This document shows positions 5,115-24,215 of a DNA stretch of 64,000 bases, piece by piece; position 1 is the first letter of the stretch; each line of letters opens with the position of its first letter. This DNA is from a virus (lineage: Duplodnaviria; Caudoviricetes), in IMG/VR virus record IMGVR_UViG_3300046528_000200, positions 1-64,000 of that record. One strand, 5' to 3'. The position numbers and the translations under genes are program-made. A model generated the notes under the pieces. It made no database searches. It saw only the letters and a program-made list of their open reading frames with translations, and was not told the DNA's origin.

Positions 5115-5512
5115 AGGTCATACTCCTTTCGTGCGCGCTCCTCGATCGAGCGCAGGTAATCGAGATCGTCGCCGAAGTCGATGCCAGCGTGGCCGGCACG
5201 GTCGAGATAGCTGATGCTCTCGCAGTCGATCACACGGGCCATGTACTTCACCAGCAGGGCCTCGAGTTCTTCAGCAGTGCGGGGCGGCTCGTCTTCCGCC
5301 GCCTCCTCGGCCGCCGCCCAGTGCCACAGCATCTCCATGCGCTCGGCGTACGTGGCGTTCGGCCACCAGCTGTGGTCCTTGTCGCCCGAGAACACCATGC
5401 CGGCGACGCCGCCGTCGGTGATGCCGACCTGGTCCATCACGCTGCGCAGCGCCTCATCAAGGTCATGGATGTGGGCGGCGGCGGCCAGCATGTGGTCTTC
5501 GATTTTAGTCAT
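5111..5512 (-). CDS. Hypothetical protein
   Basis: Coupled ORF. Confidence 0.75.
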   Translation of the reverse strand: MTKIEDHMLAAAAHIHDLDEALRSVMDQVGITDGGVAGMVFSGDKDHSWWPNATYAERMEMLWHWAAAEEAAEDEPPRTAEELEALLVKYMARVIDCESISYLDRAGHAGIDFGDDLDYLRSIEERARKEYDL

Positions 5513-15540: not shown

Positions 15541-15878
15541 TGCGGGTTCTCCAGGTCGTAGATGAGTTTGTCGAGCCAGCACATGCGCATCATGCGCTGC
15601 ATGGCGACGGCTTCTTCGCGGCGCTCAGCGAAGTGGCTGGTGGCGCTCTCCTGCAGCCACCACGGATGGCCCTTCCCGCGCAGCTGGTCGCGCACCCACC
15701 ACGTCAGGTAAGGCTGATCTTGCAGGCCGGCCATGATGTGCTGTTCGCATTCGCGGCTCAGGTCTATGGCGTCAGCGGTGATGGCGCTGGCAATGGCGAA
15801 GCAGATGTGGAACTGCTCGCCGTTGTCGATCAGGTCGCGAGCGCGGCGCAGAATGGGCAGATGTTGTTTATTGAGCAT
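15537..15878 (-). CDS. Paralogue family member A
   Basis: MLNKQHLPIL...HICFAI...MCWLDKLIYDLEN. Confidence 0.75.
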   Translation of the reverse strand: MLNKQHLPILRRARDLIDNGEQFHICFAIASAITADAIDLSRECEQHIMAGLQDQPYLTWWVRDQLRGKGHPWWLQESATSHFAERREEAVAMQRMMRMCWLDKLIYDLENPQ

Positions 15879-16215
15879 TTTCGATGTCCCAGATGAGTTT
15901 GTCGAGCCAGGCAAGCCGGGCTGTGTTGCCTCGTTCGGTCAGCAGGGCGTCGAGGTAGGGCTTGGCAAGGTCTCCATCACCGCAGGTGAATGACTTCGAG
16001 CCGAGCCGCTCTTCCATGTCGACCAGCACCCATCTCAGCAGTGTGCCGTAGCCGTTCAGCGCGCCGCGGACGTGTTCGACCACGTCATTGGCGTCGAAAT
16101 TTCGGTGCAGGCGTTTGCCGGCCACCCTGAGAGCATGGCAGATGAAGCTGTGCTCGCGGGTTTCGAGCAGCTGGCGTGCCATCTGGAGGATGGGCAGATG
16201 CTGTTTATTGAGCAT
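15868..16215 (-). CDS. Paralogue family member B
   Basis: MLNKQHLPIL...FICHAL...RLAWLDKLIWDIEN. Confidence 0.75.
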   Translation of the reverse strand: MLNKQHLPILQMARQLLETREHSFICHALRVAGKRLHRNFDANDVVEHVRGALNGYGTLLRWVLVDMEERLGSKSFTCGDGDLAKPYLDALLTERGNTARLAWLDKLIWDIENAQ

Positions 16216-16855
16216 CTTTGCCTCGCAGATAGTCGATGCGCTTGAGAAGGAATTCGATGTGATTGTGCGGGCCTGCCGGATTAGTCGCCCAGTAGGACCA
16301 GCCAACGTGGTCAAAAGTACGCGCCTGCTTTCGGAGCCAGCCTTCGAGCGCGTCGTCGCGCTCGGCCGGCGTCATCTCGCTGTGACGCAGGTCTTCCAGG
16401 AACTTGAAGTCAGGCTCCTTGAGGCGGGCGGCAAGTTCTGTCAGGACGCCAGCAGGCTTGGGCTGTTCGACAGGCAGCTTGCGCCAGACGCCGGAGTTGA
16501 CATAGCTGTCGGCGGCAGCGCGGGTGTAGAGCAGCGGATGCCGCGTGCCATCGGCACATACGCCGCCGCCCTGCTCGCTGCCAGCAGCAAATTCGACGTA
16601 AGCGGCGTCCATAAGGCCGTTGGCGTGCGTGTAGCGCGCCAAGGGCAGCGCTTGGGCCTGCAGCCGCAGCGCGATGTCTTCGACGGTGTCGGCCGGCAGG
16701 CGTTGCGTGCCCATGGTCGGCGTGCTGATCGGGTGCGGCTGGCAGTACAGCACGGTGACGCGCTCGCCCTGCTTGACCTGCACGCTGATGTTCAGGCTCT
16801 TGCCGTCGTCGCCGGGTGCGGTGCCGACGGCGATGAGGGCGTCAGTCGTGGGCAT
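16205..16855 (-). CDS. Hypothetical modular protein
   Basis: Start MPTTD with AGGAG SD. Confidence 0.7.
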   Translation of the reverse strand: MPTTDALIAVGTAPGDDGKSLNISVQVKQGERVTVLYCQPHPISTPTMGTQRLPADTVEDIALRLQAQALPLARYTHANGLMDAAYVEFAAGSEQGGGVCADGTRHPLLYTRAAADSYVNSGVWRKLPVEQPKPAGVLTELAARLKEPDFKFLEDLRHSEMTPAERDDALEGWLRKQARTFDHVGWSYWATNPAGPHNHIEFLLKRIDYLRGKDAQ

Positions 16856-17144
16856 AGCTGACTCCTTGCTGGACGGCGTGGTTGAGGGCGTTGACCAGCT
16901 GGGCGCGGAACCATCCCCGCTTGGTCTCGTTATCCCAGATGAACTGCTCGATCGGCGTCTGGCCACCTGCAATACACGCGTCTCGGGCCGCGTCGAAGGT
17001 GGGTAGCGGGACGGCCGGCAGCTGTACCTCGACCACCTGCAGGGCGCGCATGCGCGCCTCCAGCTCGAGGATGTGCTGGTTGGCGGCGGCAAGCTGGTCT
17101 TCCAGCTGGCGGATGAGCCTCTGGGCAGAGAGGGTGTCCATCAT
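16842..17144 (-). CDS. Hypothetical coiled-coil protein
   Basis: Start at ATGA overlap. Confidence 0.7.
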   Translation of the reverse strand: MMDTLSAQRLIRQLEDQLAAANQHILELEARMRALQVVEVQLPAVPLPTFDAARDACIAGGQTPIEQFIWDNETKRGWFRAQLVNALNHAVQQGVSYAHD

Positions 17145-17455
17145 TGCTTTCCTTTCAAGTCGTTGATCATGCGGTCGATGAGGGCAAGTCGTGCGGTGCG
17201 CACGCCTTCCAGGTTCCTGACTGTGCTGGCTTTCTTGCGGCCGGCGCCGCCCTGCGTCAGCCAGTCGCCCACCGTCAGGAAGGGTGCGATGCGGCCTTGT
17301 GTCTCGAGCTTGAGTTCCTCGCAAAAGACGCCGATGTTGCGGCGATGGTCGAGCTCTTTGATGGTGTCGAGGGCGATGCAGATGTAGGTGGCGTGGTTGG
17401 CCTCGATCCTCCTCCTGACGTCGGCAAGGATGCGCTGCTTGATGGCGGCGCTCAC
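17141..17455 (-). CDS. Paralogue family member C (divergent)
   Basis: YICIAL...TARLALIDRMINDL shares motifs with A and B. Confidence 0.7.
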   Translation of the reverse strand: MSAAIKQRILADVRRRIEANHATYICIALDTIKELDHRRNIGVFCEELKLETQGRIAPFLTVGDWLTQGGAGRKKASTVRNLEGVRTARLALIDRMINDLKGKQ

Positions 17456-18404: not shown

Positions 18405-19139
18405 ATGATCACCAACCATAATCGAGTGTTGCCACAAGAACAAATCCACCAGCACTTCGTGCTTGAAGGGTCGCGCCTGTACCGCAAACTTGCGTCTGGC
18501 GCGTCTGCTCGGCTCAGGAGCATGGACGGCAATCAGGTTGTTACCTTGTTCAAGAACGAGCGACTGCTTGGGACCTCGATCGCGTGGTGCCTCATCTACG
18601 GCAACTGGCCAGAGTTTCCGATTGTCCAGCTGTCGGAGGATCCGCACGACTTTTCCCAGGACAACCTGTTCCCGGCGCGGATCAAGCGCGTGCGCTATTA
18701 CGAGACACCTGTCGGCAGCCTGTATCGGCATCCCTTGAGCACGCGCTTGCACCCGAGCAGCCGCATGTGCCGCAAGGACTGGGAGTCGATGGCGCGCGAC
18801 TACTACCTGAAGGACTTCACCTACGTGCAGATGGTCGAGGCGAATTCGCGCGAGATGCGCGCCCGCTATCTGGCCGAGGTCGCGCAGTACAAGCCGGAGC
18901 TGGTGCCTGAAGTGCGCACTGAGCGCGCGGTGCGCCCCTCGCGGCCGAAGGCGATTCCCGGCCGCGAGTGGCACTGGCACGATGGCGCGTGGATGCATAT
19001 TCCGGTCGCCTGCCATGTGGCGGACGACTACAAGCGCCGCATTGCCGCGACGCTGGCCGGCGCTATCGCGTTCCGGTTTGATCCGGCGCGTCAGCTGGTC
19101 GACGCGATTCTGGCGGATGGCTCGGTGTGGGTGGGTTGA
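18405..19139 (+). CDS. Degenerate HNH-endonuclease-like protein
   Basis: SIAWCLIYGNWPEFPIVQLSEDPHDFSQDNL parallels HR(L/I)AW..YG.WP...IDHINGDR.DN...NL but lacks the catalytic His and the central Asn; AGGAG SD. Confidence 0.6.
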   Translation: MITNHNRVLPQEQIHQHFVLEGSRLYRKLASGASARLRSMDGNQVVTLFKNERLLGTSIAWCLIYGNWPEFPIVQLSEDPHDFSQDNLFPARIKRVRYYETPVGSLYRHPLSTRLHPSSRMCRKDWESMARDYYLKDFTYVQMVEANSREMRARYLAEVAQYKPELVPEVRTERAVRPSRPKAIPGREWHWHDGAWMHIPVACHVADDYKRRIAATLAGAIAFRFDPARQLVDAILADGSVWVG

Positions 19140-19200: not shown

Positions 19201-19382
19201 GCTTCCTCCTTCACGCTGGCGCACAGGGTGTCACACAGCGAAATGATCTGGGCCAGCATGACCAGGCCGACGATGGTGCGCAGCAGCCAGCTGTAGTGCG
19301 CGCCGTCGTGGGTCATGTGGGCGTCGAGCGCGCCCAGCACGACCAGGGTAACAAGGGAGGTGAGGATCTGGTAGTTTTTCAT
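19197..19382 (-). CDS. Small two-TM membrane protein
   Basis: MKNYQILTSLVTLVVLGAL...LLRTIVGLVMLAQIISL; coupled at both ends. Confidence 0.65.
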   Translation of the reverse strand: MKNYQILTSLVTLVVLGALDAHMTHDGAHYSWLLRTIVGLVMLAQIISLCDTLCASVKEEA

Positions 19383-19672
19383 GCCGCGCTCCACGCGAAA
19401 GTCAGTTTGGTTAATTGCTGTGATTTATCCGGCCTGTTCATTTCGCCTTTACGTAGTGCCGGCAGCGGTAATCCAGTCGATTTGACCATATGCCCGCGCT
19501 TCATTTTCCGGCGCTTTGGCACCTGCACAATTTCAGGGTCGAATAATTTTGATTTTTCTGGAATTTTTTCCTCCTGAATCAGGTTTTCATGCGGTTTTGG
19601 CAATGCTTTCGCATATTGCGCTACCGTGCCGCGCAGGTTCGTTTTAATCGGCACCGTCAATATCTTTCGCAT
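19379..19672 (-). CDS. Basic Lys/Pro-rich 97-aa protein with atypical AT-rich codon use
   Basis: GAGGAG SD just upstream of ATG; stop overlaps next ATG (ATGA). Confidence 0.6.
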   Translation of the reverse strand: MRKILTVPIKTNLRGTVAQYAKALPKPHENLIQEEKIPEKSKLFDPEIVQVPKRRKMKRGHMVKSTGLPLPALRKGEMNRPDKSQQLTKLTFAWSAA

Positions 19673-19689
19673 TTTCACTCCTCAAGAAA

Positions 19690-20390
19690 TAGCCATGCCA
19701 GCATCGGCGATTCGTATCAACCAATCGGCAATGCCGGCATGGTATTTCCTTTCCCTATTCGCGCCGGGAAAGGCGCTGCCGCTTGCCAAAGCGGCCCAAC
19801 TCATCGTTGCCGGGCTTTCTAAACCCGTTATTGTCTGCCTACGCAATCATCCGTCCTTATCCTGTACCGGCTTATCTCGCCCAGATTATCAATTCCCCAT
19901 TCCCGAATCGATACAAGAGCTATTTTCGCTTTCCACTGGTGCCGCGTGGCCGGTATTCATCCGGCAGCTTTACCAGTGCGTACAGATTGCCCACCGCACA
20001 GCGCCTGTTGACGCTTGATCGGGTCCAACTACATACGTCGGGTTTTCGTTTGATTGCGCCAGAACCGGAATGCCCGATTCTGTGCGTTTTATGCTGATGG
20101 CCTAGTCTGGTTCCGCTGGCGGTATAGGGCGAAGCGGCGCCAGCGACGCGACCGAATGCACGGGGCGAGGCTGGCGCGCGACGAATTCACGCCGGGCGGG
20201 TATCAGGTAGGCACGTTGTTAAAGGACGGATTCCGAAGCTGGCCAGCGACAAGGGCGATGTACGCCAGTGAAGCGAAGCAAGCGACGGTGCGCACGTGGA
20301 TCCGGTAGCGTTCTGTACCGGCGTGCGCCATGAAGCTATCCAGAACCGCGCACGCGCGGCTGTGGATAGCGCCATGGGGCGCTATCGTAG
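19690..20390 (-). ncRNA. Candidate large (~700 nt) highly structured non-coding RNA
   Basis: No credible ORF; more than 12 local hairpins plus nested long-range helices; mismatches resolve as G-U pairs on the minus strand; boundaries approximate; folded by eye only. Confidence 0.6.
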
Positions 20391-20392
20391 GG

Positions 20393-21127
20393 TCAGGCGG
20401 CGACGGCTTCGGTCTGCACCGTGCGCGCCAGCAGCAGCGCCGTTTCACGCGTGCGCGCCGCTTCAATCAACAGGCTTTCCAGTTCGGCGGACAGTGCGCC
20501 AGCTTTGAGCATGTCGGCGACGGTGCGCGCCAGCATGTCCGGTGCGGTAGCGGCTTCGACGCGCGCCGACACGGCAGCGTCCAGCTTGGTGCGCTCTTCG
20601 CGTTCGGCATCCTTCGCCAGCTTGGCGGCTTCGGCTTCCTTGGCCGCGCGTTTGGCATCGCGTTCAGCCTTGGCGGCTTCGGCTTCGGCTTCGGTGCGCG
20701 CGGGCGTCGCCATGATCATGTTAAAGTTCATGGCGAACTGGTCGGCGTAGGTGGACGCCAACGGGTCCAGAATGAGGAACTGGTCAGTCTTGTCCTTCGG
20801 CAAGTCCTTCACCATCTCCGGCGCAGGAAACGCCGCCAGCGTGGCGTGGATGGCGAAATAAACCTTCTGGAAATGCTTCACCCGCGCGGTCAGGGACTTG
20901 GCACCGAGCGCGTCTTTGGCGGCTTTGTCGGCGTCCGTGGTGCCGCTGCCATACATGGCGGCATCGGCGGCCAGCTTGGCGAACTGGGTTTTGTTACCAG
21001 CTTGCATGATGCTGTAGGCAGCGGAATAGACCGTGCAAGCGATGAGGTCGAATTGTGCTTCCGGTGCGCCAGCGATGGCACGGAAGAGATCGGACATTGC
21101 GACGGCGCGGGACTGAGTAGCTTTCAT
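20393..21127 (-). CDS. Ala-rich hypothetical protein, first gene of leftward transcript
   Basis: 244 aa; AGGAG SD; C-terminal AEA/AK coiled segment. Confidence 0.8.
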   Translation of the reverse strand: MKATQSRAVAMSDLFRAIAGAPEAQFDLIACTVYSAAYSIMQAGNKTQFAKLAADAAMYGSGTTDADKAAKDALGAKSLTARVKHFQKVYFAIHATLAAFPAPEMVKDLPKDKTDQFLILDPLASTYADQFAMNFNMIMATPARTEAEAEAAKAERDAKRAAKEAEAAKLAKDAEREERTKLDAAVSARVEAATAPDMLARTVADMLKAGALSAELESLLIEAARTRETALLLARTVQTEAVAA

Positions 21128-22093: not shown

Positions 22094-22521
22094 TGGCCAT
22101 CCAGAATTTCTCGATGGCGCCCGCCAGCGCCAAAGCCGACCCTCTCGACGGGCTTTCCGATGAAGAGCTGATCGCGCTGCGCATGCGCCTGGATAAGCGC
22201 CTGAACCTGGACCTCAAGGAGCTCGACCTTGCGGAAGAGCTGGGCATGCAGTACCGCGCGGGCCAGATACTACTTGCCAGCGTCCAGGACGACAAAAACA
22301 CGCCGGCGAACCAGCGCGCCCAGGTGTTCAACTCGGTAGGCAACATGCTGAAGGACATCGTCAAACAGCAGAAAGTGGTCTACGACGCCGAGCGCCTGAA
22401 GCGCTTCGAATCGGCCTTCCTGAAAGTGCTGGAGGATCTGCCGGATGATAAGAAGCGCAAGTTCTTCGACCTCTACGGCGAGTACCTGAAAGGCGACGCG
22501 AAAAAGGAAGCAACGGCATGA
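22093..22521 (+). CDS. Putative terminase small subunit
   Basis: Helical 142-aa protein directly upstream of, and coupled to, terL; called on position. Confidence 0.55.
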   Translation: MAIQNFSMAPASAKADPLDGLSDEELIALRMRLDKRLNLDLKELDLAEELGMQYRAGQILLASVQDDKNTPANQRAQVFNSVGNMLKDIVKQQKVVYDAERLKRFESAFLKVLEDLPDDKKRKFFDLYGEYLKGDAKKEATA

Positions 22522-24215
22522 GCCACGCCGACCCTGCGCTCCTCGAACACCTCAACCGGCTCGAACAGGCGCTCTTCAACAGCTACGACCTGAACGAGGT
22601 CGTGCGCTACCTGGAAGAGAAGACCTACCTGAAAGGTGACCGGTTCTCCTTCTACGACCACGAGTTCCAGAAGGACATCCTGTCCGACACCAGCCGCGTG
22701 GTCTACGTCCAGAAGTGCGCCCAGGTCGGCATGTCGGAGTGCATGGCGCGCTACGCGCTGGCCGTGACACGCGTGATGCCCTACTTCTCGGTGATCATGA
22801 CGCTGCCGTATTCGAACGACGCCGTCAACTTCACCAAGACCCGCCTCGACCCCATCATCGACGAGTCGCCCGACCTGCGCGACGCGATCGACAACGACCT
22901 GAACAACGCCAGCATCAAGTCGATCGGCAGCAGCCTGCTGTACATGCGCGGCTGCTCGGGCACGACCACCGCGCTGTCGGTCCCGGCCGACATGCTGATC
23001 CACGACGAGGTTGACCGGTCCGACCCGGACACCTTGGCCCAGTTCCAGTCGCGCATCAAGCACAGCAAATGGAAGCTCACACGCCGCTTCGGCACGCCGA
23101 CCACGGAAGGCCGCGGCATCGCGCTGGAGATGACCACGGCGCGGCGCATGCGCCGCGCCTGCACCTGTAATGCATGCGGCCTGCAGTTCATCCCGAGCTT
23201 CCACAAGCACGTCAAGATCCCCGATTACGACGGCGAGTTCAAGGACATCAACAAGCACAATATCGACAGCCTGCGCTGGCGCGAAGCGCGCCTGCACTGC
23301 CCGGGCTGCGATGCCGAACCGGACCTGAACCCGCAGCACCGCCAGTGGGTTTGCGAGAACCCGCAGGATGATTTCGAGGCGGTCGGCTACTACATCACGC
23401 CGTTCGAGGTGCCCAATATCGTCACCGTACCTTCGCTGATCCAGGAGATCACGAAGTACAAGACCTGGGCGGAATTCGTCAACCAGGCGCTGGGCGAGAC
23501 GGCCGACGCTGGCAGCGCCCAGCTGACGGCCGAAGACATCGAGGCTTGCCGCTACACGGCTGGCTCGCTGGCGTCGAACGAGCTGCATGCCATGGGCATC
23601 GACGTCGGCCAGACCTGCCACATCGCCGTCGGCCGCCGCACCCTTGCCGGCCAGCTGCTGGTGGTGCACCGGGAACAGGTGGCGCTGGCCAAGCTGGCGG
23701 TTCGCCGGCGCGAGCTGGCGGCGAAGTGGCGCGTCCTGATCACCGTGATCGACGCCTTCCCTGAGACCAACCTGGTGCATCAGATGCAACGCCAGGACAA
23801 GAACCTGTACGGCGGCGTCTATTCGCAAAGCCGGCTGCTGGCGACCTACAAGATCGTCATGGTCGACGAGGACAAGGCCGAGGGCAAGCTGCCGATCAAC
23901 CAGGCGCAGATCATGCGCGACATCAACTTCGACGAGGTAATGGCGCTCTACAAGAGCCGACAGCTGCAGTGGATGCCGATGGGCGACCACACCGACCGCC
24001 TCTGGCCGCTGCACATGCTCGACATGAAGCGCACCCAGGTGTTCGACAAGCACCAGGAGCTGGTCTACACCTGGGCGAAGTCGAAGGAAGGCAACGACCA
24101 CTTCATGCACACCTTGGGCTACTTGCACGTGGCTTCCCAGCTGATGGCGACGGCCTCACGCGACATTCCGTTCGTCGGTGTGAAGCTGTTCGGTACTTTC
24201 CGCGTGAAGCAATAA
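22518..24215 (+). CDS. terL: Terminase large subunit, lambda GpA type
   Basis: KCAQVGMSE (GpA-type Walker A), LIHDEVD Walker B, GTPT, CxxC pairs, GIDVG nuclease motif. Confidence 0.92.
   Translation: MSHADPALLEHLNRLEQALFNSYDLNEVVRYLEEKTYLKGDRFSFYDHEFQKDILSDTSRVVYVQKCAQVGMSECMARYALAVTRVMPYFSVIMTLPYSNDAVNFTKTRLDPIIDESPDLRDAIDNDLNNASIKSIGSSLLYMRGCSGTTTALSVPADMLIHDEVDRSDPDTLAQFQSRIKHSKWKLTRRFGTPTTEGRGIALEMTTARRMRRACTCNACGLQFIPSFHKHVKIPDYDGEFKDINKHNIDSLRWREARLHCPGCDAEPDLNPQHRQWVCENPQDDFEAVGYYITPFEVPNIVTVPSLIQEITKYKTWAEFVNQALGETADAGSAQLTAEDIEACRYTAGSLASNELHAMGIDVGQTCHIAVGRRTLAGQLLVVHREQVALAKLAVRRRELAAKWRVLITVIDAFPETNLVHQMQRQDKNLYGGVYSQSRLLATYKIVMVDEDKAEGKLPINQAQIMRDINFDEVMALYKSRQLQWMPMGDHTDRLWPLHMLDMKRTQVFDKHQELVYTWAKSKEGNDHFMHTLGYLHVASQLMATASRDIPFVGVKLFGTFRVKQ

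Follow-up and report, generated by a model that had tools for sequence, protein, structure and literature searches.

The window, i.e. the 64,000-nucleotide stretch analysed here, belongs to an 87,476-bp IMG/VR virus record (IMGVR_UViG_3300046528_000200) rated complete by CheckV. The phage has a GC content of about 64% and a siphovirus-like gene content, with a GpA-type terminase (22518-24215), a 2,304-aa tape-measure protein, a family A DNA polymerase, a ligase and an SbcC-like ATPase. At the DNA level no match was found among 50,697 records of cultured phages, and the nearest cultured-phage terminases, found in Vibrio phages, are at most about 29% identical, so that the lineage can be regarded as uncultured. 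From about 21.1 kb downward runs a block of small minus-strand genes, and the RNA described below is located after the first of them (Table 1). The original prediction placed it behind a strong early promoter; a promoter match is indeed present at 21214-21186, but it agrees with just 9 of the 12 consensus positions, which does not bear out the claimed strength. No promoter or terminator belonging to the RNA itself was predicted.

The upstream protein gave an all-helical AlphaFold model (pLDDT 83) with one long Ala/Glu/Lys-rich helix; it belongs to no known family and its fold has no Foldseek match in the PDB or BFVD. Its homologues, about 30, are confined to this phage group, and it is absent from the 50,697-record set of cultured phages. 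The downstream protein had no Pfam or PHROG match either, and a word-based homologue search returned six relatives only, all from the same phage group. In nearly all members of the family a basic protein of 95-101 aa (pI 10.3-11.2) is encoded directly after the RNA. Two homologues, L002 (at 5213-5400) and L051, have an extra small basic ORF (60 and 72 aa, respectively) between the RNA and the basic-protein gene.

Table 1. Features of the RNA locus in the window, followed by the types of central domain found in its homologues
Feature	Coordinates	Strand	Description
Upstream gene	20393..21127	-	244 aa; opens the early operon; lies next to the RNA in all members
Whole structured RNA	19685..20392	-	708 nt; begins with the first base past the upstream stop codon and ends at the last base paired ahead of the downstream Shine-Dalgarno
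P1	20384-80/20375-71	-	5' hairpin directly past the stop codon; kept in every member
P2	20370-55/20350-35	-	Twin of P1; found in all members down to the most distant
P3	20289..20327	-	Two-part hairpin with conserved loop ACAGAACGCU
P4	20233..20288	-	Long irregular hairpin ending about 6 nt ahead of the boxA-like motif
boxA-like motif and spacer (GUCCUUUAACAAC)	20215..20227	-	Unpaired in the consensus fold; best-conserved single-stranded block
P5 (P5a-d)	20111..20213	-	Multi-stem domain with conserved blocks GUGAAUUCGU and CCUAUACC
Central domain	19842..20081	-	P6 and sub-hairpins, closed by P7
P6	20081-73/20069-61	-	Hairpin in the central domain
P7	20058-51/19849-42	-	Long-range helix closing the central domain; 4 pairs with compensatory change
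P8	19828-21/19817-10	-	3' core hairpin
P9	19809-06/19800-797	-	3' core hairpin with invariant GAUGA loop (19805-19801)
P10	19795-89/19784-78	-	3' core hairpin with invariant UUUGGCAA
Candidate H-type pseudoknot	19750..19776	-	P11 GCGCC (19776-72)/GGCGC (19765-61); loop UUUCCC (19771-66) with GGGAAA (19755-50)
P12	19685..19749	-	Long terminal stem; outer GGAAAUA (19749-43) with UAUUUCU (19691-85), inner 19736-20/19715-699
Downstream gene	19379..19672	-	97 aa, pI about 10.6, Lys/Arg/Pro-rich; ATG at 19672, Shine-Dalgarno GAGGAG at 19683-19678
Type A centre			Window, L005, L008, L050, L051, L057, L063 (L003 and L062 in part only)
Type B centre			Unrelated to type A; L004, L059, L060, L061, L075
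Unique centres			L058, L074, L077
Centre absent			L002

About 550 bp beyond the small genes of the RNA operon, the minus-strand early block is broken by a plus-strand gene of 244 aa (18405-19139) that lies in a low-GC patch at 18-19 kb and has no Pfam or PHROG match; relatives carry an opposite-strand gene of 246-248 aa at the equivalent position. Minus-strand transcription must therefore either end there or run through about 1.3 kb of RNA that is antisense and untranslated, which bears on the need for antitermination. Further along the minus strand, the genes at 17141-17455 and 15868-16314 form a paralogous early pair, both matching phrog_8421, a family with no assigned function.

The gap had been predicted to be gene-free and to encode a densely folded RNA on the minus strand, and both points held. 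No gene lies between the upstream stop at 20393 and the next ATG, and the source annotations likewise leave the gap without called genes across the homologues, with the exception of an over-extended start in L063. A conserved reading frame was not found: the sense frames each contain several stops in all 15 sequences, no antisense frame is common to them, stops occur in all six frames of nearly every homologue, and indels of 1-2 nt, not multiples of three, are frequent within conserved blocks. ORFs overlapping the gap had no Pfam or PHROG match. The minus strand of 19690-20390 has a minimum free energy of -308.9 kcal/mol, with a z-score of -6.38 against dinucleotide shuffles, compared to -3.29 for the plus strand. 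The expected preference for G-U on the minus strand was recovered in the consensus pairs (152 G-U against 54 A-C cells), a count that is biased in so far as RNAalifold itself favours G-U, and the alifold energy was -230.6 in the sense and -199.4 in the antisense orientation. The G-U excess and the sense energy together point to the minus strand as the RNA strand. The proposed extent of 19690-20390 is broadly correct, except at the 3' end, where the structure continues to 19685.

None of the known families named as candidates (GOLLD, ROOL, OLE, group I and II introns, tmRNA and RNase P) matches the RNA, nor do the HEARO and raiA models. With Rfam 15 the whole window gave no match at the gathering score and the region itself gave only noise at E ≤10; in nine homologous loci nothing was found at E ≤0.5 apart from one noise match to a microRNA model. 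The claim of a novel, large, structured, non-coding RNA encoded on the minus strand of an early operon is thus upheld by covariation, by the lack of an Rfam match and by the lack of a conserved frame. It represents a genuine new family of large, structured RNAs in phages, and the support for it is good.

Searches anchored on proteins and on motifs found the gap, flanked by the same pair of genes, in 18-19 contigs of related phages, probably 22, with RNAs of about 450 to 900 nt across the family. These homologues come from IMG/VR (L002, L003, L004, L005, L008, L050 and L051) and from ENA, JGI and Logan assemblies (L057-L063); in the L-series loci the gap measures 640-730 nt with an identical gene pair on either side, and two further loci, judged from the gap between their listed genes, are likewise gene-free over 701-720 nt. 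Gap DNA is 66-73% identical to that of the window, a conservation similar to that of the flanking genes. R1, a covariance model built on the 99 positions of the 3' core, matched 12 loci with 57-111 bits. It also found the RNA at 57-73 bits in L074, L075 (=L076) and L077, whose terminases are 64-66% identical, and weakly in L082; in the distant phages detected with R1 the upstream protein is barely or not recognisable by BLAST. L071/72, L078 and L079 are still more distant and have a structured gap of 400-720 nt with the same 5' hairpins. In phages with a terminase 52-66% identical, P1/P2 and a boxA-like motif occur with unchanged spacing, also in cases where the 3' core is no longer detectable, so it is the 5' end with this motif, and not the 3' core, that is the most widely conserved part. 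A scan of metagenome and genome contigs with a 21-base motif of the 3' core gave chance matches only, inside coding sequence.

On an alignment of eight sequences (A2), RNAalifold produced 156 consensus pairs, in a fold of about 25 helices. Compensatory changes were seen in 87 of the 156 pairs, compared to 19-26 in controls with slid partners, and 90.6% of cells were paired against 33-40% in those controls; none of 500 column shuffles reached any of the observed measures. The 3' domain gave the same picture with 15 sequences (90.9% of cells paired, 31-48% in controls), and covariation is seen in 52 of the 75 pairs of the 5' domain. Support is also found at both ends of the RNA: helix 3, in the P1/P2 region (20335-20384), has compensatory changes in 12 of 16 pairs with 94.5% of cells paired, and one pair of P12, a stem whose end lies 1-2 nt ahead of the Shine-Dalgarno, occurs in all four Watson-Crick types across the 15/15 sequences. 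An all-against-all covariation scan revealed nothing convincing beyond the alifold helices.

Eleven of the local stems first drawn in the window are conserved in A2, most of them with compensatory changes. They comprise 20363-70/20335-42, 20355-61/20344-50, 20322-28/20290-96 and 20316-21/20302-07 at the 5' end, then 20074-82/20060-68, 19972-78/19934-40 and 19905-13/19887-95, and 19821-27/19811-17, 19789-95/19778-84, 19766-73/19748-55 and 19723-42/19693-712 on the 3' side. Two others, 20138-45/20114-21 and 20010-15/20000-05, are specific to the window. The long-range helices did not fare as well. Those at 20222-31/19849-58, 20199-207/19861-68 and 20192-98/19878-84 form in the window yet are disrupted in most homologues, and the same is true of the crossing helix 20207-13/19836-42, on which a pseudoknot had been based; the 3' partners of these long-range helices sit in the central domain, which is wholly missing from L002. 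The conserved long-range helix is P7. As for the candidate pseudoknot of the family, it lies in the 3' core and not at 20207-13/19836-42. Its loop helix (19771-66/19755-50) occurs in ten distinct variants that are all complementary, with an average duplex energy of -9.4 kcal/mol for cognate and -4.4 kcal/mol for non-cognate strands, and P11 has no covariation, showing only C-to-U changes that keep G-U pairs. Since the loop helix covaries and P11 does not, the pseudoknot has good support for one of its stems and is no more than plausible for the other.

Two details of the 5' half are of interest in their own right. In the window and four homologues, the extended 5' strand of P1 (GAUAGC) repeats the 3' strand of P2 (20386-20335), so that two mutually exclusive hairpins can form just past the stop codon; judging from this repeat, they could serve as a switch or pause site. 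The P5 block GUGAAUUCGU (20180-20171 region) contains in most type A members a GAAUUC palindrome, a sequence that could support loop-loop dimerisation.

The central domain is the variable part of the RNA (Table 1). L004 is 73-91% identical to the window in its 5' and 3' domains (blastn) and nevertheless has a type B centre, which indicates that the central domain has been exchanged as a cassette. Members with a type B centre also lack the outer helix of P3; the P3 loop ACAGAACGCU recurs in L078 and L082.

The original prediction was right in calling a structured RNA, its architecture had to be redrawn, and it overlooked the boxA-like motif at 20227-20215. The family consensus of this unpaired block is UCUUUAACAAU, to be compared with the rrn boxA UGCUCUUUA and its spacer ACAAUUUA and with the lambda boxA CGCUCUUA (PMC2724277), or with the working boxA consensus GYTCTTTAANA (GYUCUUUAANA as RNA; PMC5725501). 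At a homologous place, 15 of the 19 members have a single mismatch to GYTCTTTAANA and 3 have two, the chance of a one-mismatch match anywhere in a shuffled sequence being about 1.7% per sequence. The motif lies 130-190 nt past the upstream stop codon (about 170 nt in the window). No member matches the consensus perfectly, a published consensus from which the host's own boxA may differ. For the window taken by itself the motif does not reach significance, with 8 matches at ≤3 mismatches where 5 are expected. L075 has the exact lambda form CGCUCUUA, and the distant relatives have GCUCUUUAUGA, GUUCAUUAACA or GUUCUUUAUCC at the same place. L075 (1075-1778, minus strand; =L076) also has a GC-rich hairpin inserted between CGCUCUUA and the ACAAU spacer. 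In a Burkholderiales genome we found GCUCUUUAACAAUG 228 nt upstream of the 16S gene, with 14 of 14 bases identical to L003; the Burkholderiales rrn leader and the phage RNAs share 10-14 bases only. This match indicates that the consensus is valid in at least one high-GC proteobacterial order. From its sequence, the RNA probably carries a boxA.

At rRNA operons and in lambda, boxA-bound NusB-S10 keeps NusG from Rho and permits long untranslated transcripts. A boxA has been described in rrn and lambda (PMC2724277), in other transcripts (PMC5725501) and in the T7 early region (PMC3709561), and it is exploited for the transcription of long CRISPR arrays (PMC7862264). An untranslated insert of 700 nt in the middle of an operon is just the place where Rho would be expected to act, and for this reason we propose protection by boxA and the Nus factors. 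The reading that we put forward, tentatively and at chances that fall just short of even, is that the RNA loads NusB/S10 during its transcription, making RNA polymerase resistant to Rho, and that the body of the RNA is a platform for a partner. Host RNA polymerase would make the RNA as an untranslated segment within the phage early operon, and about 170 nt after the ribosome has left the upstream gene the single-stranded boxA would leave the polymerase. We infer that it would then bind NusB-S10 (NusE) of the host and, together with NusG and NusA, yield a Rho-resistant polymerase that could complete the long untranslated RNA and read on into the downstream early genes. The Nus complex may also aid the folding of the long-range helices, as it does at rRNA operons. 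The 5' hairpins, the exchangeable centre and the pseudoknotted 3' core would form the binding platform, and the invariant loops of the 3' core suggest a specific partner. The first candidate for this partner is the small basic protein of 97 aa whose gene immediately follows the RNA, much as lambda N is encoded beside nutL.

Known antitermination RNAs are 50-120 nt long. A body of 700 nt with about 25 helices is far beyond the needs of antitermination and counts against the boxA/Nus reading, as do the roughly 400 nt between the motif and the boxB-like hairpin P9 and the lack of similarity between the downstream protein and lambda N, and the function of the RNA body is at most partly explained.

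The same excess of size and complexity over known antitermination elements argues for a stand-alone ornate RNA in the sense of GOLLD, ROOL and OLE, cut from the early transcript and acting in trans, for which boxA would merely secure completion; we see this as a distinct possibility, though not one towards which we would lean. Such an RNA, alone or as an RNP, might act against a host defence or host factor, as decoy or as inhibitor, or might be a multimeric assembly. GOLLD and ROOL themselves are thought to act in trans. Its 3'-core loops are invariant between phages in which a similarity of the flanking proteins can no longer be recognised, and a centre that is swapped between near-identical RNAs and missing in one would fit a peripheral module under changing selection. 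The long end stems P2 and P12 could, we suppose, be RNase III processing sites. However, no promoter or terminator dedicated to the RNA was predicted, and conservation is widest at the 5' end with the boxA-like motif rather than in the 3' core, neither of which is in line with a trans-acting RNA. It is somewhat unlikely, though worth entertaining on the features of the sequence, that we are dealing with a new phage RNA machine, either tethered to the polymerase through boxA and the Nus factors, its 3' core and centre acting on the polymerase or on host factors, or processed into a free-standing RNP or multimer with a role so far not known for any RNA, for instance a defence decoy. If so, the swapping of the central domain would reflect an arms race.

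A more modest role would be that of a passive spacer for processing and stability, in which a block of hairpins between cistrons, like the RNase III sites of the T7 early region, shields the mRNAs from nucleases with no specific partner. The RNA does lie between two cistrons with stable hairpins adjoining both genes, but a spacer would need neither the pseudoknot nor the long-range helix that have been kept, nor invariant unpaired GAUGA, UUUGGCAA, boxA-like motif and CCUAUACC, and we hold this role to be improbable. That the locus is not an RNA gene at all, being a missed protein gene on either strand, a DNA element (origin or packaging site), a self-splicing intron or a known ribozyme, is very improbable. 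Long open frames on the plus strand, at 19626-20018 and 19783-20097, speak for a gene, but they look random and match nothing in Pfam or PHROG, and 1-2 nt indels run throughout with no conserved frame. G-U pairs are tolerated only on the minus strand, and none of the Rfam models for introns, ribozymes, RNase P or tmRNA matches; the upstream stop codon is conserved, as is the downstream start together with its Shine-Dalgarno, so that there are no exons to join. Two other candidates were dropped along the way, namely a retron, DGR or group II element, ruled out as the phage genome encodes no reverse transcriptase, and a CsrA-type sponge, the number of GGA motifs being, by eye, about that expected from base composition.

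The RNA family combines unusually clear covariation, obtained from about 20 sequences, with a modular build. To our knowledge very few RNA classes of bacteria or phages that exceed 500 nt have a proven conserved architecture, and each of them gave unexpected biology. No description of this family was found in the searchable literature, the largest published IMG/VR screen having reported motifs of 29-151 nt only, from an earlier release (PMC10690425). The probable boxA provides a mechanistic handle and would link the RNA to the host machinery for rRNA transcription. Should the boxA/Nus reading be true, phages outside the lambdoid and T7 groups would make long untranslated early RNAs by rRNA-style antitermination.

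The likeness to GOLLD and ROOL that was originally pointed out holds for size and phage location and stops at the covariance models, which do not match. Like GOLLD, ROOL and OLE, the RNA is phage-borne, measures several hundred nucleotides, is rich in helices and pseudoknots, and has a variable part beside a conserved one. In contrast to GOLLD and ROOL, which occur in Bacillota prophages and often have tRNA genes nearby, it belongs to the early operon of a high-GC siphophage and has a probable boxA, and ARAGORN detected no tRNA gene in the 64-kb window. ROOL, GOLLD and OLE form homo-oligomeric RNA assemblies (PMC12286853).

In the proposed mode of action, the RNA may be compared with the HK022 put RNA and other RNA-only processive antiterminators (EAR), cis-acting folded RNAs that lie early in an operon and modify the polymerase, as we propose for this one. 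The put RNA is about 70 nt long with two stem-loops and needs neither Nus factors nor boxA, and we saw no sequence or structural likeness to it. With lambda nutL and nutR and with T7 the RNA would share a boxA in a phage early operon. Lambda N and the 97-aa protein are both small, basic and encoded directly downstream, a likeness of size, charge and position only, as no similarity to N was detectable with Pfam or PHROG. The P9 loop GAUGA (GAUAA in L058) could, we assume, take up a GNRA-like fold in which the third base is flipped out, as in the boxB of lambda and P22. A lambda nut site, however, spans about 50 nt, with boxB 8-10 nt past boxA, while P9 is about 400 nt away here and about 130 nt in L002. 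A lambda-type nut site was accordingly set aside, there being no boxB-like hairpin near boxA and no protein of the N family.

The leaders and spacers of rRNA operons offer the remaining comparison, their antitermination region consisting of a boxB hairpin, boxA and boxC on which NusB, S10, NusA, NusG and SuhB form a complex. The phage RNA differs from an rrn leader in lying between two protein genes with no rRNA after it, each member deviates at one base, and there is no resemblance outside the 12-14 nt motif. Nevertheless, the two have in common an unpaired boxA, or in the phage RNA a boxA-like motif, with an ACAAU spacer, a hairpin before it and a long structured untranslated transcript exposed to Rho; the motif consensus of the family is identical to the rrn boxA, P4 occupies the position that boxB has in rrn leaders, and in both cases long-range helices follow downstream.
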